64,000 nt of DNA from an uncultured Rhodospirillales bacterium. Lineage in GTDB: Bacteria; Pseudomonadota; Alphaproteobacteria; Acetobacterales; Acetobacteraceae. Position numbers and translations under genes: made by a program. The DNA is taken from NCBI GenBank assembly GCA_903844135.1, contig CAIMSN010000041.1, forward strand, positions 1,895 through 65,894, read 5' to 3'. This document shows, in pieces, positions 5,040 through 47,245 of the stretch; positions within the stretch are counted from its first letter, which is position 1; the number at the start of each line of letters is the position of its first letter. The notes under the pieces are model-generated. The model was given only the letters and a program-made list of their open reading frames with translations. It was not told the origin of the DNA and searched no databases.

Positions 5040-6662
5040 GTGACTAAAGCCGGATTGCTGCTGACGACCGCCCTGCTCGCGCTGCCGGCCGGGCTGGCGC
5101 GTGCCGACGACGCGACCATCAAGATCTCCAAGAGCAGCAAGCCCGCGCCGCATCTGACCGCAGACGAGGCGACCAGCGACGGCAGCGTCACGGCAGGCGG
5201 CCAGCATATCGACTACACCGCCACCGCCGGTACGCTGGTGGTTCATCCGAAGGGATGGGACGACGCGGTCAAGCCGGACGCCGACAAGCCGGACGATTCC
5301 ACGCCGTCGGCGGAGGCGTCGATGTTCTACGTCGCCTATATCCAGAAGAACGCCAAGCCCGAGACCAGGCCGATCACGTTCCTGTTCAACGGCGGCCCAG
5401 GATCGGCCTCGGTCTGGCTGCATATGGGCGCGTTCGGACCCAGGCGCGTGGTGACGCTGGATCACGAGCACGGACCGGCCGCACCCTACCGGCTGGTGAA
5501 CAACGACGAGAGCCTGCTCGACGCCAGCGACCTGGTGTTCGTCGATGCGCCCGGCACCGGCTTCTCGCGTATCGCCGGAAAGGACAAGGAGAAGAGCTTC
5601 TACGGTATCGACCAGGACGCGCACGCCTTCGCCTCGTTCATCTCGTCCTTCCTGTCGAAATACGGACGCTGGAACTCGCCCAAATACCTGTTCGGAGAAA
5701 GCTACGGCACCACCCGCTCCGCGGTCCTGGTGAACGAGCTCGAGCAGGCCGACAGCATCGACTTCAACGGGGTGATGCTGCTGTCGCAGATCCTGGTGTT
5801 CGATGCCAGCGTCGACGGGCCGAGCGCCAATCCAGGCATCGACCTGCCCTACGTCGCCGGCCTGCCGACCTATGCGGCGACCGCCTGGTATCACCACAAG
5901 CTCGGGCCCAACCCGCCCGACCTGAACACGCTGCTCGGCACCGTCGAGACGTTCGCGCTCGGCGAATACAGCGCGGCCCTGCAGCAGGGCGCACTGCTCG
6001 ACGACGACCAGCGCGACCGGATCGCCGCCAAGATGAGCAGCTACACAGGACTGCCGGTCGAATATCTGAAGAAGGCCAACCTGCGCGTCGATGGCGGCAT
6101 GTTCGAAAAGACCCTGCTGGGCGGCAGCGACACCACCACCGGACGGTTCGATACGCGCTTCTCCGGCCCGACCATGGATCCGCTGAGCAAGGAGGCCGAA
6201 TACGATCCGCAATCCGCCGCGATCAGCTCGGCCTACGTCTCCGGCTTCAACGACTATGTCCGCCGGCAGCTCGGCTACGGCATGGGCAAGACCTACCTGC
6301 CGGACATCGAGATCGACAACTGGGACATGAAGCACCAGCAGCCCGGCAACAGCCAGCCGAGCACGCAGTCGGCCAACGTGCTGCCCGACCTGGCCGCGGC
6401 GATGACCTACAATCCCAACCTCAAGGTGCAGCTCAACCAGGGCTTCTACGATCTCGCCACGCCGTATTTCGAGGGCGAGTACGAGATGCGCCATCTGCCG
6501 ATGGCCAAGTCGCTGCAGGCGAACATCGAGTTCCGTCATTACCAGTCCGGCCACATGGTCTATGCCAACCAGGACAGCCTGAAGCAGCTTCACGACAACG
6601 CCGCCGACTTCATCCGCCGGACCGACGGAACCAGGCCGGGCGACGCAGCGCCGGCGAAATAG
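5040..6662 (+). CDS. S10 family serine carboxypeptidase-like peptidase (secreted)
   Basis: Signal peptide LLLTTALLALPAGLARA, GESYGTTRS (the GESYG nucleophile motif) and the typical WLHMGAFGP region. GTG start. Confidence 0.8.
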   Translation: MTKAGLLLTTALLALPAGLARADDATIKISKSSKPAPHLTADEATSDGSVTAGGQHIDYTATAGTLVVHPKGWDDAVKPDADKPDDSTPSAEASMFYVAYIQKNAKPETRPITFLFNGGPGSASVWLHMGAFGPRRVVTLDHEHGPAAPYRLVNNDESLLDASDLVFVDAPGTGFSRIAGKDKEKSFYGIDQDAHAFASFISSFLSKYGRWNSPKYLFGESYGTTRSAVLVNELEQADSIDFNGVMLLSQILVFDASVDGPSANPGIDLPYVAGLPTYAATAWYHHKLGPNPPDLNTLLGTVETFALGEYSAALQQGALLDDDQRDRIAAKMSSYTGLPVEYLKKANLRVDGGMFEKTLLGGSDTTTGRFDTRFSGPTMDPLSKEAEYDPQSAAISSAYVSGFNDYVRRQLGYGMGKTYLPDIEIDNWDMKHQQPGNSQPSTQSANVLPDLAAAMTYNPNLKVQLNQGFYDLATPYFEGEYEMRHLPMAKSLQANIEFRHYQSGHMVYANQDSLKQLHDNAADFIRRTDGTRPGDAAPAK

Positions 6663-17780: not shown

Positions 17781-18269
17781 TCACCGCCCGGTGTCGAGGG
17801 CTTTCGCGCGACCGGGTTCGCGCAGCGGTCCGCCGCGCGCAAGGCCTGCGGCCAGCGCCGCACGCTCCTCGAGCGGCAGGCCGGCGGCGAAGCCGATCGC
17901 CGCGGCCTCGAGCTGTCCGCGCAGATCGAAATCGGCCTGGCGCGCCCGCTCCAGGGCTTGCCCGATCGCCGCCTGATCGAAGCTCGGCTGCACGAACAAT
18001 GCGGCGGCCTGCCTGCGACTTTCGCGGGCGATCCTGGCGAGCGCGCGATTGTCGCGCACCACGGCGCGCATGGTCTGGTTGAAGCGCATCCGTTCGGGCG
18101 CCGGCAACTGCGCGCCGGCGACGACGACCGGCCGATGCGCGAACGCGGCCGGATGCGGACCGAAGCCGCCGCGCGCCGCCATCACGAGCAGCCCGCCGCC
18201 GATCGCGCCGATCGCGAACAGGTTGAGGAACACGGAAACGACGAACAGGATCGTCCAGCGGCGGGTCAT
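17781..18269 (-). CDS. membrane-anchored periplasmic Spy/CpxP-like protein ('periplasmic heavy metal sensor' type)
   Basis: MTRRWTILFVVSVFLNLFAIGAIGGGLLV is a TM anchor. It is followed by a helical Arg/Ala/Gln-rich domain of the kind commonly encoded after an ECF sigma / anti-sigma pair. ATGA overlap with the anti-sigma gene. Confidence 0.5.
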   Translation of the reverse strand: MTRRWTILFVVSVFLNLFAIGAIGGGLLVMAARGGFGPHPAAFAHRPVVVAGAQLPAPERMRFNQTMRAVVRDNRALARIARESRRQAAALFVQPSFDQAAIGQALERARQADFDLRGQLEAAAIGFAAGLPLEERAALAAGLARGGPLREPGRAKALDTGR

Positions 18270-18697
18270 CGCGTCTGTCCGTCCGGCGCGACCTCGTCGG
18301 CATCGTCGATAGGCTCGCCGAGGACGGTCAGGCTGTATAGCGCGCCGGACACCTGATCGCCGGCTTGCGGCAGCGCCAGGACGCTGATTCCCGCCGCCAC
18401 GCCGCCGGCGAGGGTCACGGCGGCACCCAGGCCGGAGAGGAAGACGCGCCACCGGAGCCGCAGCGACCGACCCCGCGACAGCCCCGCCATGACGCGTCCA
18501 GACAGGTCGGCGCCAGGCCCGGACACGGTCCAGCAGGCCAGCGCCGCGTCCAGCGCGGCCTCCCGCTCCAGCACCGCTTGCGCCTGATCGGGTCGCGCGC
18601 GCTGGAAGGCCAGGGCCTGCTCGCGCTCCGCTTCTGGCCAGCGATCCGGATCGGCGCCATACGCGCCGGCAAGGACGGCGAAACGCTCTGGCGTCAT
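18266..18697 (-). CDS. anti-sigma factor (single TM)
   Basis: 143 aa with a cytoplasmic N-terminus and the TM segment VFLSGLGAAVTLAGGVAAGISVLAL. It has 4-nt overlaps with the sigma gene upstream and the CpxP-like gene downstream. Confidence 0.55.
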   Translation of the reverse strand: MTPERFAVLAGAYGADPDRWPEAEREQALAFQRARPDQAQAVLEREAALDAALACWTVSGPGADLSGRVMAGLSRGRSLRLRWRVFLSGLGAAVTLAGGVAAGISVLALPQAGDQVSGALYSLTVLGEPIDDADEVAPDGQTR

Positions 18698-19323
18698 GGT
18701 TCGGCTCCTTCCAACAAGGCGCGCAGGCTACGGCGCGCACGCGACAGCAGGCTTTCGAGCGCTTCGACACTGACTCCGAGCACCGCAGCGGTCTCGATAT
18801 TCGTGAGCTCCTGGTAGGTCTGCAGCATGATCGCCTCTCTCTGCCGGTCCGGCAGTCTCGCGAGCGCCGCCTGAACGCGACGCGTGGTCTGGTCCTGCGC
18901 CATGCGCTGATCGGCTGGTGGCGCGGGATCGACCTGATCGGGCGGTTCGGCGAACGGCACCTCGCGCTTGCGGCGCAGGCGGTCGTAGCAGAGGTTCAGC
19001 ACCACGCGATGCAGCCAGGTGTCGAACCGGGCGCGGCCGGGCTTCCACCCCGCCGCCTGACGCCAACTGCGCAGCAGGGCCTCCTGGGCCACCTCCTCGG
19101 CGTCGCCGGCATCGCCGAGCATGCGCAGCGCGAGCGCATGGACCCGCGCGAGCTTGCGCCCGACCAGCTCCCGGCTCGCCGTCTCGTCGCCTTCGCCCAT
19201 GCGTCTGAGCACGTCGGCATCCGGATCCTCGTCCGAGACCGCCTCCCTCTTCTCGATCGCCACCCTTGCGCCACGGCGATCGCACCGGCCGGCCGGCCCG
19301 GCTCCGATCGTTGAACGCGACAC
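18694..19323 (-). CDS. RNA polymerase ECF-type sigma-70 family factor
   Basis: Region 2 (DAEEVAQEALLRSWRQA...FDTWLHRVVLNLCYDRLRR) and region 4 (LPDRQREAIMLQTYQELTNIETAAVLGVSVEALESLLSRARRSL). The start is uncertain: ATG 19323 or the GTG near 19263. Confidence 0.8.
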   Translation of the reverse strand: MSRSTIGAGPAGRCDRRGARVAIEKREAVSDEDPDADVLRRMGEGDETASRELVGRKLARVHALALRMLGDAGDAEEVAQEALLRSWRQAAGWKPGRARFDTWLHRVVLNLCYDRLRRKREVPFAEPPDQVDPAPPADQRMAQDQTTRRVQAALARLPDRQREAIMLQTYQELTNIETAAVLGVSVEALESLLSRARRSLRALLEGAEP

Positions 19324-19392
19324 GGCGCGATATCCGTCGCGATCGCGAGCGGTCTTTCCGGAGGCGGGCGCGCAAACGCGGGCCGGCCGACC

Positions 19393-20034
19393 CTACCAGC
19401 GCGTCAGCAGCGGAAGCGCCAGGCGGGTCAGCAGCGAGACCGCGCCACAGCCGACGAGATACCAGACCGCGATGTAGAGCGGATCGTCGATCGGGCAGGC
19501 GAACACGAAGACGAACGCGCCCCAGCTCGCCGCGGCGAGGCCGGCGATCCAGGCGGTGCCGTTCCGGTCGGTGGGTGCGCCGCGCTGCACCAGCACGCCG
19601 AGCCCCAGTACCGGCGGGATCGACAGCAGCACCATCTTGAAAACGCATTGCACGCCGCTCCGCCAGTCGAGGCGGTTCAGCAGCGATGGCCAGCCATCCA
19701 GGACGGCTCCGATCGGCCAGCCGGCGGCGAGGCACAGCAGGACCAGCGCCAGCACCAGACGCAGTCCGCGTCGCGGCGAGCGCACCGGATCCAGCGACAG
19801 GAGGGCGACGGCGCAACTGGTCAGAGCGATCGAGCCGAGGCTGACCAGCTTCCACCAGAAGCCGGCATGGCCCATCGCCTCGGGCATGTCGGGGCGAGTA
19901 CCGCCCAACACCAGGAACAGCAGCAGTTCGACCAGGCCGATGCCGCCGATCACCAGCGCATCGCCCAGGGCGGTGCGACGGCTCACCGGCGTCAGCTCGT
20001 GCGCGAGCCGGTCGATCAATGGTTCATCCGACAT
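19393..20034 (-). CDS. nrsF: NrsF-family (DUF1109) polytopic anti-sigma-F factor
   Basis: 213 aa starting MSDEPLIDRLAHELTPV, then six hydrophobic segments. This is the classic DUF1109 layout directly downstream of and overlapping an ECF sigma gene. Confidence 0.75.
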   Translation of the reverse strand: MSDEPLIDRLAHELTPVSRRTALGDALVIGGIGLVELLLFLVLGGTRPDMPEAMGHAGFWWKLVSLGSIALTSCAVALLSLDPVRSPRRGLRLVLALVLLCLAAGWPIGAVLDGWPSLLNRLDWRSGVQCVFKMVLLSIPPVLGLGVLVQRGAPTDRNGTAWIAGLAAASWGAFVFVFACPIDDPLYIAVWYLVGCGAVSLLTRLALPLLTRW

Positions 20035-20596
20035 CGGATCTGCTCCGCACCAGCGCACCGAGGCGAGAAAGCCCGCGATGGATGTTGACCTTGACCAGCG
20101 AAGCGGTCTGTCCGCTGCGCGATGCCGCCTCCTCGATGCTGAAGCCTTGCAGCTTCACCAGCCTGATGACCAGCGCCTGCGGCGGCTTCAGCAGGTCGAG
20201 CAGCTTTTCGAGCATATAGGCGCTGGTGACCGACGCCTCGTGATCGGCGACGGCGATATCCTCGTCCAGCGTGTGGGTCGGCGCCGCCTTCATCGCCCTG
20301 AGCCGGTCGATCCACTTGTAGCGCGCGATCGCCGCCAGCCAGGGCTCGAACGGTCGCGCCGGGTCGTAGGTGTGGCGCTTCTCGTGCACCACCAGCATCA
20401 GATCCTGCACCGCGTCGTCCACCATCGACGGCGGCAGGCGACGCGCATAATAGCGACGCAGCCAGGGCTGGATCTGGCCCAGCAGCCTGCGGTACGCCGA
20501 GGCGTCGCCGCCCTGCGCCGCCGCCATCAGCGCGCCCCAGTCGGGCGAGGAATTGGCGCGGGTGTCTGGCACCAAATCCACCTGCCGCACCCACAC
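20024..20596 (-). CDS. sigF: ECF sigma factor, SigF (ECF16)-like
   Basis: DWGALMAAAQGGDASAYRRLL..., DAVQDLMLVVHEKRHTY..., WLAAIARYKWIDRLR and region 4 LVKLQGFSIEEAASRSGQTASLVKVNIHRG. Paired with the DUF1109 gene. The exact start is uncertain. Confidence 0.8.
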   Translation of the reverse strand: MWVRQVDLVPDTRANSSPDWGALMAAAQGGDASAYRRLLGQIQPWLRRYYARRLPPSMVDDAVQDLMLVVHEKRHTYDPARPFEPWLAAIARYKWIDRLRAMKAAPTHTLDEDIAVADHEASVTSAYMLEKLLDLLKPPQALVIRLVKLQGFSIEEAASRSGQTASLVKVNIHRGLSRLGALVRSRSDVG

Positions 20597-20682
20597 CTCC
20601 GTCGTCCCGAACCGGTCCAGAAGGCGATGTATCCGCTGCCGGACCGTCTGGCCAGGACGTTCCGGCCCTGTCGTCGGCCGAC

Positions 20683-20708
20683 GTAACTTTTCTCTCCGTC
20701 CACACGAA
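20683..20708 (+). promoter_or_regulatory. SigF-type ECF promoter motif GTAACT-N16-CGAA upstream of the cytochrome b gene
   Basis: Read directly: GTAACT at 20683-20688, a 16-nt spacer, CGAA at 20705-20708, 31 nt before the GTG at 20740. It matches the GTAACC-N16-CGAA motif I recall for Caulobacter sigma-F. Confidence 0.6.
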
Positions 20709-20739
20709 GGCTTTCAGACAGCAACCGGACGTCAAAGCC

Positions 20740-21363
20740 GTGAGAACAGGAAAACCGGCCCATCCCCTGGTGGTGCGCGTGACGCACTGGATCGGCGCCG
20801 TCGCGATGCTCTGCATGATCACGAGCGGGTGGCAGATCTACAACGCCTCGCCGATTCTGCCGTTCGTGTTTCCCGCCTGGGCGACGCTCGGCGGCTGGCT
20901 CGGCGGCGCGCTGAACTGGCATTTCGCGGCGATGTGGGTGCTGGCCGGCTCCGGGCTGGTCTATCTCGCCTACGGTCTGGCCAGCGGGCACTTGCGGCGT
21001 GACATCCGGCCGGCTGGTCCGCGCGCGGTCTGGCGCGACCTGATCGCTGCGCTGACCTTCCGGCTGGCGCATCGCGAGGGCCACTACAATGCGGTGCAGC
21101 GCCTGCTCTATGCCGGTGTGCTTCTGGTGGCGCTGCTGACGGTGGCCAGCGGCGTGTCGATCTGGAAGCCGGTGCAGTTCGGCTGGATCACCTGGAGTCT
21201 CGGCGGCTACGACATCGCCAGACGCATCCATTTCGCGCTGATGTCGCTGATCGTCGGCTTCCTGCTCGTGCATCTGGCCCTGGTGGCGCTCGTACCCTCG
21301 ACGTTGCGCAGCATGATCACCGGCGGCCGGATCGCGCCGCCGAGCCAGGAGCACGGATCATGA
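20740..21363 (+). CDS. cytochrome b/b561-type membrane protein (partner of the Mo-oxidoreductase)
   Basis: HPLVVRVTHWIGAVAMLCMITSGWQIY... with four TM segments carrying conserved His (HW, NWHF, RIHF). 4-nt overlap with the next gene. Confidence 0.75.
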   Translation: MRTGKPAHPLVVRVTHWIGAVAMLCMITSGWQIYNASPILPFVFPAWATLGGWLGGALNWHFAAMWVLAGSGLVYLAYGLASGHLRRDIRPAGPRAVWRDLIAALTFRLAHREGHYNAVQRLLYAGVLLVALLTVASGVSIWKPVQFGWITWSLGGYDIARRIHFALMSLIVGFLLVHLALVALVPSTLRSMITGGRIAPPSQEHGS

Positions 21364-22127
21364 GCAACCAGGCCGGTCGGCTGATCGGGGCCCCTGCCCT
21401 GTCCGCGGTGCGTCCCGAACTGGCGAAGATCGAGCGTCGCCTGCTGCTGCGCGGCGCCCTGTCGCTCGGCATGCTGTCGATGCTGACCGGCTGCAAACTC
21501 GATGACGAGCCGTCGGTCGAGGCCGCATTGTCGGCGATGTCGCGTTTCAACGACAAGGTCCAGGCGGCGCTGTTCAGCCGGACCCGCCTGGCGGCGACAT
21601 TCCCCGCCAGCGCGATCACCAAGCCGTTCCCGTTCAACGCCTATTACGGCATGGACGAGATCCGCACCGTCGATACGCAGAAATGGCGTCTGGAGGTGTC
21701 AGGCCTCGTCACCGAGCGCGCGCCGTGGTCGCTGGCGGATCTGCGGAAGCTGCCGCAGCAGAGCCAGATCACCCGTCATATCTGCGTCGAGGGATGGAGC
21801 GCGATCGGGCAATGGTCCGGCGTGCCGTTTTCGGTGTTTCTCGACAGGATCGGGGCGGACCGGCGCGCACGCTATGTCGGCTTCAAATGCTTCGACGACT
21901 ATTTCACCAGCATCGACATGGCGACCGCGCGGCATCCGCAGACCATCATGGCGCTGGATTACGGCGGATCGCCGCTGCCGCCGGCCTATGGCGCACCGAT
22001 GAAGCTGCGGATGCCGACCAAGCTCGGCTACAAGAATCCGAAATACATCGCCGCGATCACCGTCACCAACGTCAACCCGGGCGGATACTGGGAGAACCAG
22101 GGCTACGACTGGTTCGGCGGTTCGTAG
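21360..22127 (+). CDS. molybdopterin-dependent oxidoreductase (sulfite-oxidase fold, YedY/MsrP-like)
   Basis: Tat-like RRLLLRGALSLG plus LTGC, and ...ITRHICVEGWSAIGQWSGVPFSVFLD...YGAPMKLRMPTKLGYKNPKYI, which is typical of the oxidoreductase molybdopterin-binding domain. Confidence 0.8.
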   Translation: MSNQAGRLIGAPALSAVRPELAKIERRLLLRGALSLGMLSMLTGCKLDDEPSVEAALSAMSRFNDKVQAALFSRTRLAATFPASAITKPFPFNAYYGMDEIRTVDTQKWRLEVSGLVTERAPWSLADLRKLPQQSQITRHICVEGWSAIGQWSGVPFSVFLDRIGADRRARYVGFKCFDDYFTSIDMATARHPQTIMALDYGGSPLPPAYGAPMKLRMPTKLGYKNPKYIAAITVTNVNPGGYWENQGYDWFGGS

Positions 22128-22129
22128 CT

Positions 22130-22155
22130 GTAACCCTCGAGGCGCCATCGACGGA
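22130..22155 (+). promoter_or_regulatory. SigF-type ECF promoter motif GTAACC-N16-CGGA upstream of the Met-rich protein gene
   Basis: GTAACC at 22130-22135, starting 3 nt after the upstream TAG. A 16-nt spacer follows, then CGGA at 22152-22155, 62 nt before the ATG at 22218. It has one mismatch in the -10 element. Confidence 0.45.
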
Positions 22156-22217
22156 GAAGAGGAGAGACGCGAGCCGCACCGGCGCGCGTCCCTTACGTAG
22201 TCAAGGAACTCCTCGTC

Positions 22218-22502
22218 ATGTCCAGGTTCTTTTCAATCCTCGCCCTGTCCGGCTGCCTCGCCGCTCCCCTCGCCGGGCCGGCCTTCGCGCAGGACACGAT
22301 GCAGAAACCCACCACCGCCATGTCGCACGACGGGATGCAGCCGAACGCCATGTCGCATGGCGCGATGCAGCCGAACAGCATGGCCCACGGCGGCATGCGG
22401 AAGAAAGCGCCTGGCCATGACGCGATGGCTCACGACGCGATGAAGCCCGACTCCATGTCCAAGGACGCCATGTCGCAGGACAAGATGGCCGCGCCGAAAT
22501 AA
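22218..22502 (+). CDS. pentapeptide MXKDX-repeat protein (Met/His-rich, secreted)
   Basis: Signal peptide MSRFFSILALSGCLAAPLAGPAFA, then AMSHD GMQPN AMSHG AMQPN SMAHG GMRKK APGHD AMAHD AMKPD SMSKD AMSQD KMAAP. An AAGGAA RBS lies 9 nt upstream. Confidence 0.8.
   Translation: MSRFFSILALSGCLAAPLAGPAFAQDTMQKPTTAMSHDGMQPNAMSHGAMQPNSMAHGGMRKKAPGHDAMAHDAMKPDSMSKDAMSQDKMAAPK
22296..22490 (+). repeat. 15-bp periodic coding repeat (about 12 units) encoding x-M-x-x-x pentapeptides
   Basis: Seen in the translation. Met recurs every fifth residue across this span. Confidence 0.75.
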
Positions 22503-22513
22503 TCGAGCGAACC

Positions 22514-22539
22514 CGCCCGGACCGCGAACGGTCCGGGCG
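22514..22539. terminator. GC-rich hairpin between convergent genes (Met-rich protein and DUF1223)
   Basis: CGCCCGGACCG-CGAA-CGGTCCGGGCG with a perfect stem and no clear U-run. Confidence 0.45.
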
Positions 22540-22556
22540 CCGATGGGAGACGGCGT

Positions 22557-23282
22557 TCAGAGCTTCGCCGCGGCGACGATCGGGCCGCCACGGCCTGCCT
22601 GCACCAGGATCGCGCTCTTCAGGTGCGGATCGGCGGAAGGCGGCAGCACGAAGGTCGCGGTGCCGCCGGTCCAGTCGCCGAGCGTCACCACCTGACGCAC
22701 CACGTTGCGGTGCGGCAGCGTGCGGCCGCCATTTTCGCCGCGACGGATCGGCACCTCGATGATCGACGGATCGTAGCGCACCAGCTCGACCAGCCCGCCC
22801 GCCGACGGTGCTGGGCCGCTCACGCCGAGCCGGTCGCCCGCCACCGATAGCGACGGTCCGGTGGCGCCGCGATCGTTGCGCGAGATCAGCGCGTCGAGCG
22901 CCGCGCGGTCCGCGCCGACCACGTCCGAGCGGCCATTCACCACCACCTCCGGGGTGAACACGCCGCTGCGCCGGAACGCGGCGGCATAGTCGTATTGCCG
23001 CTTCGTGAAGGCGGGATCGTCGAAAGTGTCCTTCCAGCCCAGCGAGTCCCAGTAGGTGACCTGCCACGACAGGGTCAGCAGATCGGGCCGGTCGGCCAGC
23101 GCCATCACGTTGGCGTTGGCCGGCGGGCAGGACGAGCAGCCCTGGCTCTGGAACAGCTCGACCACGGTCGGATGCGCGGCATCGGCGGCCTGCGCCGGTC
23201 GCAAGGCCAGACACGTGCAGACGGCGCCGAGGATCGGCACCATCCTCGACAGGCTGTGTCTTGGCAGTCGGCTCTTGTTCAT
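22557..23282 (-). CDS. DUF1223 domain-containing secreted thioredoxin-fold protein
   Basis: 241 aa from the ATG at 23282. Signal peptide ...LALRPAQA, then VVELFQSQGCSSCPPAN...LSWQVTYWD, the DUF1223 signature with CxxC. The 393-aa ORF is a 5' extension. Confidence 0.8.
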   Translation of the reverse strand: MNKSRLPRHSLSRMVPILGAVCTCLALRPAQAADAAHPTVVELFQSQGCSSCPPANANVMALADRPDLLTLSWQVTYWDSLGWKDTFDDPAFTKRQYDYAAAFRRSGVFTPEVVVNGRSDVVGADRAALDALISRNDRGATGPSLSVAGDRLGVSGPAPSAGGLVELVRYDPSIIEVPIRRGENGGRTLPHRNVVRQVVTLGDWTGGTATFVLPPSADPHLKSAILVQAGRGGPIVAAAKL

Positions 23283-23334
23283 GGCGTCGGCCCCTCCGCA
23301 GCGGCGCGCGACTTGCCGCCGGTTCCTGGGTCCA

Positions 23335-23360
23335 TTCGGTGGCGCTGCGCCGCAGGTTAC
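23335..23360 (-). promoter_or_regulatory. SigF-type ECF promoter motif GTAACC-N16-CGAA upstream of the DUF1223 gene
   Basis: On the - strand: GTAACC (23360-23355), a 16-nt spacer, CGAA (23338-23335), 52 nt before the ATG at 23282. The -35 hexamer contains the TAA stop (23359-23357) of the upstream lldD-like gene. Confidence 0.6.
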
Positions 23361-24559
23361 CGAACCGCGTTGGATGGATCCTGCCCGCCCGGCGCGAAGC
23401 GATCGACCAGGATGTGCCTGCCGATCTCGTCGCAGCTCCTGAGGCCGAGATAGGCCATGTCGCGATCGAACTCGGCGCGGATCAGCGACAGCGCCTCGCC
23501 GAGCCCGGCCTCGCCGCCGAGGATGGCGGAGAAGAAGAACGGGCGCCCGATCAGCACCGCATCCGCGCCGAGCGCCATCGCCTTGTAGATGTCGGCCGAC
23601 CGCCGGACCCCGCTGTCCAGCAGCAGCATCATGTCCGGGCACGCCGCCCTGATCGCCGCGATCGCCTGGATCGGCGCGACCACGCTGTCGATCATCCGTG
23701 CGCCATGGTTGGAGACCACCAGCCCGTCGACGCCGCATTCCTGCGCCAGCGTCGCGTCCTCCGGCGAGAGCACCCCCTTGAGCACCAGGCGGCCGCTCCA
23801 GCCACGCCGGATCTCCCGGATCGTGTCCCAGTCGAACGCCTCCGCACCGCCCACGGTGCCGTGGCGTCGCGAGAAGATGCTCGGGCCGGGCGTGGCGGTG
23901 ATGTTGCTGATGCGCGGCACGCCGCGCGCCGCGAGGGTCCGCGCGAAACGGCCGAGCAGCCAGCGCGGGTGCGTCGCCATGTCGAGCGCCAGGCGCGGCG
24001 TGACGCGGATCGGCATGGTGTAATGCGCCCGCCTCTCCCCCTCGCGCGGGTTCGCCACCGGCACGTCGACGGTGATCACCAGCACCTTGAACCCGGCGGC
24101 GCCGATGCGGGCCAGCATCGCCTCGATCACCGACCGGTCGCTCGGGAAATAGGCCGCGAACCAGGCTTCGGGATTCTCGGCGATCACCGCCTCCATCGGG
24201 GTGATGGAATTGGCGCTGAGCAGATAGGGCACGTTGGCACGACGCGCGGCCCTGGCCATCGCCCTGTCGGCGTCGAAACCGATCACCGCCGCCGCCCCGA
24301 ACGGCGCCACGCCGATCGGAACTGCGTAGCGATGCCCGAACAGGCTGACGCCGGTGTCCCGGCCGGCGACGCCGCGCAGCACGCGCGGCATCAGGCTCCA
24401 GCGCCGGAACGCGGCATTGTTCTCCTCCAGGCTGCGGCCCTCCCCGGCGGAGCTGGTGAGATACGCGTACAGCGCCCGCGGCAGCAGCCGGCGCGCCGCC
24501 GGCGCGTAATCGTTCAGCGACAGGAACCGCGTCCGCCGCCGAAACCGCATTCTGGTCAT
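23357..24559 (-). CDS. FMN-dependent alpha-hydroxy acid dehydrogenase/oxidase (LldD / glycolate oxidase family)
   Basis: 400 aa from the ATG at 24559. Contains ...LVLKGVLSPEDA..., VSNHGARMID and DSGVRRSADIYKALALGADAVLIGRP-like motifs. Confidence 0.8.
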   Translation of the reverse strand: MTRMRFRRRTRFLSLNDYAPAARRLLPRALYAYLTSSAGEGRSLEENNAAFRRWSLMPRVLRGVAGRDTGVSLFGHRYAVPIGVAPFGAAAVIGFDADRAMARAARRANVPYLLSANSITPMEAVIAENPEAWFAAYFPSDRSVIEAMLARIGAAGFKVLVITVDVPVANPREGERRAHYTMPIRVTPRLALDMATHPRWLLGRFARTLAARGVPRISNITATPGPSIFSRRHGTVGGAEAFDWDTIREIRRGWSGRLVLKGVLSPEDATLAQECGVDGLVVSNHGARMIDSVVAPIQAIAAIRAACPDMMLLLDSGVRRSADIYKAMALGADAVLIGRPFFFSAILGGEAGLGEALSLIRAEFDRDMAYLGLRSCDEIGRHILVDRFAPGGQDPSNAVR

Positions 24560-46207: not shown

Positions 46208-47245
46208 ATGGCGGCCATACTCGCGACCACGCCGCGCGCCGTCGCCGAAACCGGTCTCACGGTCACGGCACTCGGGGTCGGCACCGCCCCGCTCGGCGGC
46301 CTCTACGCCGACGTGCCCCGCGCGCAGGCGCTCGACGTGCTGGACTGCGCCTGGGAGCGCGGCATCCGCTACTTCGATACCGCACCGATGTACGGACTGA
46401 CCCGCTCCGAGCACCTGACCGGCCACGTGCTGCGCGAAAAGACCGAGCCGTTCACACTCTCCACCAAGGTCGGCCGGCTGATGACCAACGAACGGGTCGG
46501 CCGCACGCTCCCGCCCGAGCCACCGCGCAATCCGCTCGATCCCGGTTTCTTCAACGCCCTGCCATTCCGCGAGGTCTTCGACTACAGCTACGATGCGATC
46601 CTTCGCAGCTACGACGACAGTCAGCAGCGCCTCGGGCTGCGACGCCTCGACCTTCTCTACGTCCACGATATCGGCCGCGTGACGCACGGCGAACGACACG
46701 ACCACCACTGGTCGGCACTGACCAAGGGTGGCGGCTTCCGGGCGCTGCAGGCATTGAAGGCTGCAGGGTGCATCGGCGGCTTCGGCCTCGGCGTGAACGA
46801 GTGGGAGGTGATCCGCGACGCCCTCGAAGAGACGGACCTCGATTGCAGCATGCTCGCCGGCCGCTACTCGCTCCTCGACCGGGATGCCGCCGAGACGTTT
46901 CTGCCGTTGGCAAAGCGCCGCGGCGTCGCGGTGGTGATCGCCGGCGTCTACAATTCCGGTATCCTGGCAGCACCGGTCGGTGGCCGCCGCAAATTCAACT
47001 ACACCGATGCACCACCCGAGATCCTCGCCCGGGTCGAAGCGCTCCGTGGCGTATGCGACGATCACAATGTCCCGCTCGCCGCCGCCGCCATCCGCTTCCC
47101 GATGCGCCATCCCGCGGTGACCTGCGTCGTCATCGGCGCGAAAACCCGCGATCAGCTCGAGAAGAACATCGGCTGGTTCGACACCGCGCTGCCCGAGGCG
47201 CTGTGGCCGGCCTTGGACGAGGCTCTCGCACCACGCAACGCGTAA
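46208..47245 (+). CDS. aldo/keto reductase (aldose 1-dehydrogenase-like, e.g. L-fucose/D-threo-aldose dehydrogenase type)
   Basis: LGVGTAPLGGLY..., GIRYFDTAPMYG and the VIAGVYNSGIL pattern. Confidence 0.75.
   Translation: MAAILATTPRAVAETGLTVTALGVGTAPLGGLYADVPRAQALDVLDCAWERGIRYFDTAPMYGLTRSEHLTGHVLREKTEPFTLSTKVGRLMTNERVGRTLPPEPPRNPLDPGFFNALPFREVFDYSYDAILRSYDDSQQRLGLRRLDLLYVHDIGRVTHGERHDHHWSALTKGGGFRALQALKAAGCIGGFGLGVNEWEVIRDALEETDLDCSMLAGRYSLLDRDAAETFLPLAKRRGVAVVIAGVYNSGILAAPVGGRRKFNYTDAPPEILARVEALRGVCDDHNVPLAAAAIRFPMRHPAVTCVVIGAKTRDQLEKNIGWFDTALPEALWPALDEALAPRNA

Follow-up and report, generated by a model that had tools for sequence, protein, structure and literature searches.

Among the described systems closest to the locus analyzed here, SigF/NrsF-YedZ1Y1-MrpX of Azospira suillum PS (Melnyk et al. 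2015) is an experimentally defined hypochlorite-scavenging regulon, in which nrsF-sigF is divergent from genes denoted 'yedZ' (PF00033) and 'yedY' (PF00174) and from mrpX, the gene of a secreted Met-rich peptide (PMC4436054; gene table in PMC3884062). SigF and NrsF control the genes for the cytochrome b, the Mo enzyme and MrpX, which respond to chlorite and hypochlorite but are not induced by H2O2; MrpX becomes oxidized (PMC4436054). In Brucella melitensis, BcrS and AbcS are an alphaproteobacterial ECF16 sigma factor and its DUF1109 anti-sigma factor. BcrS activates bcrXQP, whose products are a Met-rich MXKDX peptide and two proteins that putatively make up an Msr pair. It does so from TGTAAC/GCGAA promoters (TGTAACC-N16-CGAA) for which the starts of transcription have been mapped; the targets form a single operon in the order X-Q-P, the sigma operon is autoregulated, and DUF1223 is not reported (PMC8315932).

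Two other systems are comparable. Caulobacter crescentus sigma-F, which depends on C131 and C181 of NrsF for being kept inactive, acts on the motif GTAACC-N16-CGAA. Chromate, dichromate and cadmium induce it, a response that runs through the NrsF cysteines, and its small regulon consists mainly of DUF2282-DUF692-DUF2063-DoxX operons, with a YedY homologue but no MrpX or DUF1223 reported (PMC3511200). The ECF16 pair EcfF/OsrA of Bradyrhizobium japonicum, autoregulated from a consensus promoter, governs a dispersed regulon of methionine sulfoxide reductases and other oxidoreductases; the phenotype studied is singlet oxygen sensitivity, and no adjacent cluster of cytochrome b, Mo enzyme, MrpX and DUF1223 genes has been described (PMC3420878).

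Here, we report on a 64 kb stretch of DNA (hereafter, the window) that most probably contains an ECF16-type SigF/NrsF stress switch together with its local regulon, a known kind of stress module that would guard the periplasm against bleach-like oxidants. Gene order and promoter type are the same as in Azospira. Whereas Azospira has one target operon and an autoregulated sigF-nrsF, in the window mrpX has its own predicted promoter, none was found for sigF, and there is an additional gene, for DUF1223, again with a predicted promoter of its own. Brucella shares with the window the combination of an alphaproteobacterial ECF16 sigma factor and a DUF1109 anti-sigma factor, as well as targets at the level of an MXKDX peptide and an Msr-like pair, and the T-rich start of its promoter spacer resembles that of the cytochrome b promoter in the window. 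Caulobacter and the window have in common the motif, two conserved cysteines in NrsF, and a small regulon with a YedY-type Mo enzyme. An earlier, sequence-only reading of this DNA was right on regulation and wrong on novelty: the gene combination, which it had not seen described as a unit, is preceded by the SigF regulon of Azospira (PMC4436054, PMC3884062) and by Brucella (PMC8315932). What is peculiar to this locus are the separate predicted promoters of mrpX and DUF1223, CGGA at the mrpX site, the missing autoregulatory promoter of sigF, and a cytochrome b561-type membrane partner.

The sigF gene (20024..20596, minus strand) encodes an ECF sigma factor with only the Sigma70_r2 and Sigma70_r4_2 domains, of 190 aa if read from the first GTG; gene callers place the start two codons later in loci that are 96% identical (188 aa, as called in L161). 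It overlaps by 11 nt with nrsF (19393..20034, minus strand), which encodes a polytopic anti-sigma factor of 213 aa (DUF1109/NrsF; PF06532, 121.7 bits) whose 56 bits fall short of the 300 required for the NCBIfam equivalog. Cys130 and Cys180, numbered closely to C131 and C181 of Caulobacter NrsF, do not vary when the protein is aligned with homologues that are 47% and 30% identical to it. SigF homologues with 35-70% identity are encoded beside the same targets, accompanied by the same motif. A search for a fourth motif copy upstream of sigF on the minus strand, allowing 2 mismatches at most and spacers between 15 and 18 nt, found none. The autoregulatory promoter found in relatives is therefore missing here and, with it, the usual positive feedback. 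Directly downstream of nrsF lies a second ECF operon that includes a PF13801 Metal_resist protein.

Divergent from sigF are the genes for a cytochrome b561-type membrane protein (20740..21363, plus strand; 207 aa; PF01292, 76.9 bits) and a short molybdopterin oxidoreductase of the sulfite-oxidase/YedY superfamily (21360..22127, plus strand; 255 aa; PF00174, 106 bits), the stop of the former overlapping the start of the latter by 4 nt. The cytochrome b gene directly precedes the Mo enzyme gene in 80/80 genome loci, and its product presumably carries electrons from quinol to the Mo enzyme. The latter has a twin-arginine signal and a lipobox (Cys45), with RR26-27 and C45 invariant in its family. 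Its best PDB match is E. coli YedY (1XDQ), in which RMRCVEAWS aligns with the Cys-containing motif RHICVEGWS. Like MsrPQ (YedYZ) of E. coli, the pair combines a Tat-exported Mo enzyme of the same superfamily with a haem b membrane partner, and by analogy it may have a similar role in HOCl defence. However, the enzyme in the window is about 80 residues shorter than MsrP, carries the lipobox, and matches MsrP, its best NCBIfam hit, with 91 bits, far under the cut-off of 207. In this lineage, the short lipoprotein subfamily is a putative methionine sulfoxide reductase. MsrQ is a ferric-reductase-like PF01794 protein, and in E. coli a two-component system, not an ECF sigma factor, controls msrPQ. 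The YedZ/YedY- or MsrQ/MsrP-like pair proposed from the sequence was imprecise: the Mo enzyme falls well short of the MsrP model, and the membrane partner is a PF01292 protein and not a YedZ/MsrQ homologue.

The next gene encodes an MrpX-like secreted Met-rich protein (22218..22502, plus strand; 94 aa; TIGR02953 penta_MxKDx, 55.3 bits against a cut-off of 41) with a signal peptide that, as read from the sequence, ends at AFA-QD and a predicted mature part containing 17% Met, 7% His and 21% charged residues. It converges with the gene for DUF1223 (22557..23282, minus strand; 241 aa; PF06764, 188.9 bits), a secreted protein of thioredoxin fold that carries a CSSC motif, with ELFxSxGCSSCPPA invariant; the PDB match is 2AXO (Atu2684; E = 4.6e-34), classified as thioredoxin-like in SCOP, as cited in PMC3091736. 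Together with the ECF sigma domains and PF06532, these matches confirm the gene identities assigned earlier. Between the two convergent genes, an 11-bp GC-rich hairpin without a T-run (22514..22539; -31 kcal/mol on either strand, z = -2.8 and -2.4) likely ends transcripts from both sides.

The pattern GTAACY-N16-CGRA has exactly three matches in the whole window, all correctly oriented and within 2.8 kb of sigF: at 20683..20708 (plus strand), 31 nt before the GTG of the cytochrome b gene (20740); at 22130..22155 (plus strand), beginning at the third base past the Mo enzyme stop (22127) and ending 62 nt before the ATG of mrpX (22218); and at 23335..23360 (minus strand), 52 nt before the ATG of DUF1223 (23282). 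These sites, which we refer to as P_cytb, P_mrpX and P_DUF1223, are predicted promoters of the SigF type, serving a regulon that is compact and local. The three copies and their distances agree with the sequence and the open reading frames, the earlier assignment of GTAACC-N16-CGAA to Caulobacter sigma-F was correct (PMC3511200), and this motif corresponds to the consensus published for ECF16. The earlier count of two exact matches and one single-mismatch match has to be amended: against the strict Caulobacter motif, only P_DUF1223 is exact, P_cytb (GTAACT) and P_mrpX (CGGA) having one mismatch each. Under a weight matrix dominated by Betaproteobacteria, P_cytb scores 8.1, no better than two probable chance matches elsewhere in the window, and its support comes from position and orthology. 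Its -35 and -10 elements are identical in the 96% relatives, where changes fall only in spacer and flank, and Asaia (L004) has a homologous site, GTAACTTTT...CGAAGG.

Comparative genomics of 160 related loci (80 genome loci anchored on the Mo enzyme and 80 metagenome loci anchored on DUF1223) backs the proposal of a local regulon. In the first set, 49 of 52 motif copies reside in the 27 loci with SigF/NrsF nearby (Fisher test, 1e-16), at 13.8 copies per 100 kb versus 0.43 in the others; 41 copies are less than 200 nt upstream of cytochrome b (16), sigF (11), DUF1223 (9) or mrpX (5) genes. In the second set, all 13 copies occur in 7 of the 10 SigF/NrsF loci and none in the other 70 (4e-8). The T immediately 5' of GTAAC is 85% conserved, although it lies outside the search pattern. 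The 96% relatives retain all three -35/-10 elements with changed spacers and flanks, and relatives at 82-84% carry the motif at matching places. The motif also precedes exported MsrB-MsrA in relatives, where the arrangement suggests that SigF drives this pair as well, linking it to methionine repair. Dechloromonas (L070), with a Mo enzyme 66% identical, combines an Azospira-type layout with divergent motifs.

The -10 element of P_mrpX leaves room for a tentative alternative with two functional sites only, in which the promoter at the CGGA site has decayed and transcripts from P_cytb run on into mrpX, making the cytochrome b, Mo enzyme and mrpX genes one operon like that of Azospira. CGAA stands in each of the 40 unique, well-placed homologous sites and CGGA in none, though the search pattern permitted it, and the only other CGGA matches (L015, L044) are away from any target gene. 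Moreover, no terminator-like structure separates the Mo enzyme stop from the site, and the targets form single operons in Azospira and Brucella. Against decay, the -35 matches in full, as does the T before it, the site is the second-best weight-matrix match in the window (15.6), and CGGA and both hexamer-like elements survive in the 96% relatives despite a one-base change in the spacer. Its position is orthologous to CGAA-bearing mrpX promoters in L001, L003, L004, L007 and L165 (the motif with CGAA also precedes mrpX in L076), the L007 sequence that aligns with it being GCTGTAACC...CGAAGAACAGGA. We conclude that P_mrpX may be weak or dead, and that the switch with three predicted promoters is the better description of the locus.

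Under this preferred reading, NrsF, a six-helix membrane protein with its two conserved cysteines, would hold SigF at the membrane until an envelope oxidant frees it, a release step taken from published homologous systems. By analogy with homologues that are specific for hypochlorite, the signal would most likely be reactive chlorine species or another oxidant attacking methionine and cysteine. SigF-RNA polymerase would then initiate transcription from as many as three promoters that follow (T/C)GTAAC(C/T)-N16-CGAA. P_cytb would yield the cytochrome b561-type protein and the Tat-exported, lipid-anchored relative of YedY/MsrP, P_mrpX the secreted Met-rich MXKDX protein, and P_DUF1223 the secreted thioredoxin-fold CxxC protein. 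The Met-rich protein could serve as a sacrificial oxidant sink, with the Mo enzyme reducing methionine sulfoxides in it and in other periplasmic proteins at the expense of electrons passed from quinol through cytochrome b, as in the published methionine cycling, and DUF1223 would probably deal with oxidized thiols.

The same switch and promoters might instead answer metal stress (chromate, cadmium, copper), with the MXKDX protein as a periplasmic binder of soft metals and DUF1223 shielding thiols from metals. The induction of Caulobacter SigF by metals and its YedY homologue point in this direction, as do the histidines of the mature Met-rich protein and the Metal_resist protein encoded beyond nrsF. 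Nevertheless, we regard this as unlikely: the operons that dominate the Caulobacter regulon are absent from the cluster, the targets other than DUF1223, here and in relatives, are related to methionine sulfoxide (MsrP-like enzyme, MrpX, exported MsrA/MsrB), and the two experimentally studied systems with such gene content answer HOCl or chlorite, not H2O2. The emphasis previously placed on chromate and cadmium holds for Caulobacter, but the gene content here better fits the branch concerned with reactive chlorine and methionine oxidation.

That the three copies are chance matches without a regulatory role, as could be argued from single-mismatch matches inside genes elsewhere in the window and from the deviation of every copy from the extended consensus at 1-2 positions, is effectively refuted by their number (3 versus a mean of 0.15 in dinucleotide-preserving shuffles of the window, 0/100 of which gave three), in line with the earlier judgement, by retention at orthologous positions from 96% to ~60% protein identity, and by co-occurrence with SigF (only 3 copies in 1.07 Mb of related loci without a neighbouring SigF).

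Within the SigF regulon, the DUF1223 arm is apparently the sole point without a prior description. The stop codon (TAA) of the FMN-dehydrogenase gene upstream lies within the -35 of P_DUF1223, and G instead of T/C precedes GTAAC. Motif placement marks DUF1223 as a recurrent, predicted direct target of SigF in Alpha- and Betaproteobacteria: the motif is kept before DUF1223 in L001 (N16), L165 and L161/L162, occurs with N15, 60 nt ahead of the ORF, in L002 and L003, and is found upstream of DUF1223 in 8 Betaproteobacteria-type loci with a DUF1223-first operon and directly ahead of the ORF in 4 metagenome contigs.

A pattern scan of the window for GTAAC[CT]-N16-CG[AG]A returned three matches across its 64 kb, at 20683-20708 (+), 22130-22155 (+) and 23335-23360 (-), the same three copies that had been picked out in a sequence-only reading. 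Dinucleotide-preserving shuffles of the window gave a mean of 0.15 matches by chance, and at least three matches in none of 100 shuffles. The distances given in that reading are all correct: 31 nt to the GTG start of the cytochrome b gene (cytb, 20740-21363, +), 62 nt to the gene for a Met-rich protein (mrpX, 22218-22502, +) and 52 nt to the ATG of the DUF1223 gene (22557-23282, -), with the second motif beginning at the third base past the stop codon of the Mo enzyme gene (21360-22127, +) and sigF (20024-20596, -) overlapping nrsF (19393-20034, -) by 11 nt. The count of two exact copies and one with a single mismatch has to be amended, as the strict form GTAACC-N16-CGAA gives one exact match (DUF1223) and two single-mismatch matches. 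Profile searches upheld the gene assignments (ECF sigma factor, PF06532 NrsF, PF01292, PF00174, TIGR02953 and PF06764), and GTAACC-N16-CGAA is indeed the published sigma-F motif of Caulobacter (PMC3511200). One-mismatch matches at 47117, 52304 and 60286 were dropped, all lying inside long open reading frames, and an Rfam search of 19000-24000 yielded only sub-threshold noise.

For comparison, we assembled 80 genome loci around relatives of the Mo enzyme and located the homologues of all six proteins together with every copy of the motif. These loci, which amount to 1.06 Mb, hold 52 copies. A SigF-like sigma factor or NrsF is encoded close by in 27 of the loci, which account for 49 copies (13.8 per 100 kb); the other 53 loci have three (0.43 per 100 kb; Fisher p = 1e-16). 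Forty-one copies lie less than 200 nt upstream of the targets cytb (16), sigF (11), DUF1223 (9) and mrpX (5). The base preceding GTAAC is T in 85% of the sites, even though this position was outside the search pattern, and the derived consensus, cTGTAACC-N16-CGAA(t/c), is the published ECF16 consensus. The majority of the cytb-Mo enzyme(-mrpX) loci from Burkholderiales and Acetobacteraceae lack a neighbouring SigF/NrsF and are nearly devoid of the motif, so that in the 53 loci of this kind other regulators must control the module.

The window encodes the corresponding regulators. SigF consists of regions 2 and 4 only (PF04542, PF08281) and scores under the cut-offs of the NCBIfam subfamilies. 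NrsF, a polytopic anti-sigma factor of the DUF1109 type encoded directly downstream, matches PF06532 (121.7 bits; cut-off 26.8); with 56 of the 300 bits required by the NCBIfam model, it is not an equivalog of the Caulobacter protein. Two of its cysteines, C130 and C180, are unchanged in homologues with 47% and 30% identity and correspond, matched by numbering, to C131 and C181, which are functionally important in Caulobacter NrsF. Target promoters of the ECF16 form, (T/C)GTAAC-N16/17-CGAA, are represented by the three sites in the window.

All three -35 and -10 elements are kept in the four loci of 96% identity (L161-L164), where spacer or flanking bases have changed in each site. In more distant relatives, at 84% (L165) and 82% (L001-L003), the motif precedes cytb and DUF1223, with a 15-nt spacer at the DUF1223 site of L002 and L003; it also precedes mrpX in L001, L003 and L165, the relatives among these with a detected mrpX homologue. 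Furthermore, the mrpX site of the window aligns base for base with the mrpX sites of Gluconacetobacter (L007) and Asaia (L004). We also derived a weight matrix from 40 homologous sites, which was left out as a significance test because Betaproteobacteria dominate it and mononucleotide shuffles reach similar maxima. Within the window, this matrix ranks the DUF1223 site first and the mrpX site second, and places the cytb site no better than two intragenic matches.

At one or two positions, each of the three sites differs from the extended consensus. The mrpX site has CGGA as its -10 element, as against CGAA in 40 of 40 unique, well-placed homologous sites recovered by a search that also allowed CGGA, and this promoter may therefore be weak; the remaining CGGA matches sit away from target genes. 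Transcription of mrpX by read-through from the cytb promoter is accordingly a live alternative to a promoter of its own, to be set against the alignment of this site with those of Gluconacetobacter and Asaia. In an Acetobacteraceae metagenome-assembled genome (L016), a SigF motif just past the Mo enzyme stop codon (5261-5286, +) drives the same-strand, downstream sigF-nrsF pair, so that there the promoter slot after the Mo enzyme serves sigF-nrsF, not mrpX. In the cytb site, GTAACT follows a C; Asaia has this variant too, as GTAACTTTT...CGAAGG. The DUF1223 site has an unusual G before GTAAC, and its -35 element GTAACC contains the TAA stop codon (23357-23359, -) of the upstream gene for an FMN-dependent dehydrogenase (PF01070 in L161), so transcripts of that gene may also read through into DUF1223. 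Taken with their conservation, the three sites are, on comparative grounds, genuine SigF-type promoter sites, and we infer that the predicted promoters are used in this organism. The proposal that SigF-type promoters define a local regulon is thus well supported by comparative evidence.

The sequence-only reading knew of no description of this gene combination as a unit; its core has been described before. In Azospira suillum PS, Dsui_0154 to Dsui_0158 encode NrsF (PF06532), SigF, a cytochrome b annotated as 'yedZ' (PF00033), 'yedY' (PF00174) and MrpX (PMC3884062), in the same gene order and orientation as in the window. RNA-seq of strains deleted for sigF or nrsF has shown that the Azospira SigF regulon is exactly the cytb-Mo enzyme-mrpX operon, which is induced by chlorite and hypochlorite and not by H2O2, and in which MrpX serves as a methionine-based sacrificial sink that the Mo enzyme reduces again (PMC4436054). 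The frequent proximity of YedY proteins of the Azospira type to MrpX, SigF/NrsF and msrA/msrB has already been noted (PMC4436054), and our loci reproduce these associations. The second characterized case is the BcrS/AbcS-bcrXQP system of Brucella, with promoters mapped by 5'-RACE (PMC8315932), in which BcrQ and BcrP resemble the window proteins by description. Papers on ECF16 factors of S. meliloti and Cupriavidus contained nothing relevant to this gene set. The cluster is an Acetobacteraceae case of an established type, the SigF/NrsF-cytochrome b/Mo enzyme-MrpX system, and, because the Azospira and Brucella systems already explain the regulation and the core genes, mainly adds an example from this family. 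It differs from the Azospira system, a single operon, in having three separate predicted promoters, and what it shows beyond the known system is a modest new finding, the link with DUF1223, and a missing feedback promoter.

In the E. coli MsrPQ system, the haem b membrane subunit, MsrQ, is a ferric-reductase-like protein (PF01794), whereas the membrane partner in the window is a cytochrome b561-type protein that matches PF01292 at 76.9 bits and has no PF01794 match in Pfam. The earlier label 'MsrQ-like' is imprecise. The 255-aa Mo enzyme contains PF00174, and among the structures in the PDB it is closest to YedY (1XDQ), to which it can be aligned across the Cys-containing motif; it misses the MsrP equivalog score (NF003767, 91.1 bits against a cut-off of 207). 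A twin-arginine pair (R26, R27) and a lipobox cysteine (C45) are invariant in the alignment of the short Mo enzyme family, indicating that the enzyme is probably a Tat-exported lipoprotein, whereas E. coli MsrP is soluble. By analogy with the genetics of Azospira and Brucella, the enzyme would have methionine sulfoxide reductase activity. Given the PF01292 partner, the likely lipoprotein anchor and the sub-cut-off MsrP score, the cytb-Mo enzyme pair, although by analogy working like MsrPQ, is strictly not a member of that system and belongs with the Azospira-type pair. The proteins called 'YedZ/MsrQ' in these SigF modules are of the cytochrome b561 type, and their partner is a short lipoprotein Mo enzyme; this subfamily is distinct from E. 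coli MsrPQ and merits biochemical study of its own.

MrpX, a small secreted protein with MXKDX repeats, matches TIGR02953 with 55.3 bits (cut-off 41); a signal peptide is readable from its sequence, and the mature part is 17% Met. The predicted mrpX 5' leader (22156-22217, +) has a predicted fold of -28.4 kcal/mol (z = -3.56), more stable than that of any of 200 shuffled versions, in which GAGGAG pairs with CUCCUC just before the ATG and the AAGGAA ribosome-binding site is predicted to be buried in a small hairpin. A GC-rich hairpin lies between the convergent mrpX and DUF1223 genes.

The DUF1223 protein (PF06764, 188.9 bits against a cut-off of 30.7) is secreted, carries an invariant GCSSCPPA (conserved as GCxxCPPA) and aligns with PDB 2AXO (E = 4.6e-34), a structure classed as thioredoxin-like (PMC3091736). 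The motif stands ahead of a solo DUF1223 gene in the window, L001-L003 and L165, and in eight of the loci collected around the Mo enzyme, from Oxalobacteraceae and other genomes of Betaproteobacteria type, DUF1223 opens a motif-driven DUF1223-cytb-moox-(mrpX) operon. As an independent sample, we collected 80 metagenome loci anchored on DUF1223. SigF/NrsF is adjacent in 10 of these, the motif occurs in 7 of the 10, and all 13 motif copies are in SigF/NrsF-bearing loci, with none in the other 70 (Fisher 4e-8). In four loci (L085, L090, L106 and L128), 10-45 nt separate the end of the motif from the start of DUF1223, and neither cytochrome b nor Mo enzyme was detected on the captured contig; this third arrangement, in which DUF1223 with the motif ahead of it is the nearest neighbour of sigF-nrsF, is seen on several soil metagenome contigs. 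This association with the motif and SigF/NrsF in both sets of loci argues that DUF1223 is a recurrent, predicted direct SigF target, and the metagenome sample, in which many contigs are too short to tell, suggests that about one in eight DUF1223 loci is SigF-linked.

The literature searched with the term 'DUF1223' contained no link to SigF, and we believe this link to be the one undescribed element of the system. The broader proposal, that DUF1223 is a conserved direct SigF/NrsF target that supplies a missing thiol-handling part of the defences of the periplasm against reactive chlorine and the oxidation of methionine, is a tentative one, which we consider slightly more doubtful than probable; that the protein handles oxidised periplasmic thiols is something we only infer. 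The main value of the comparison lies in the testable context, envelope oxidant defence controlled by SigF, that it provides for DUF1223, a widespread family that is uncharacterised despite a solved structure. Copies encoded directly upstream of cytb (L006, L037, L055 and L058, mostly Betaproteobacteria) have one additional cysteine immediately past the signal peptide and a second close to the C-terminus, both lacking from the alphaproteobacterial type (window, L001 and L076 in the DUF1223 alignment), which suggests two subtypes.

An autoregulatory promoter of the sigma operon is typical of the ECF16 family and is weak in Caulobacter. No minus-strand match to such a sigF promoter was found in 20480-20760 when both strands were searched with up to two mismatches and spacers of 15-18 nt, and a sigma-70 scan of 19200-23600 found no site. 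The promoter is present in nearly all relatives, including L001-L004, L007, L039, L165 and many Betaproteobacteria, and is also absent from the 96% relatives; when the region is aligned with L001-L003, their divergent promoter pair has no counterpart in the window. In Asaia (L004) and L165, a SigF motif lies ahead of msrB-msrA-sigF-nrsF, and a gap of ~0.9-1.3 kb between motif and sigF points to the same layout in L007 and L039; in L085, the motif precedes an exported MsrB. Comparison of the sigF-cytb intergenic region (20597-20739) with these relatives shows that the window and its 96% relatives have neither the divergent SigF-type promoter nor msrB-msrA, and the region resembles what would remain after a deletion of msrB-msrA and/or the divergent promoter. 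Having lost both, this lineage would represent a small-scale natural experiment on the design of ECF circuits.

nrsF is followed directly, on its own strand, by a second ECF system (17781-19263, -), which comprises an ECF sigma factor (18694-19263, -), a putative anti-sigma factor of 143 aa with no Pfam match (18266-18697, -) and a periplasmic protein of the Metal_resist family (PF13801; 17781-18269, -), an arrangement that is kept in the 96% relatives.
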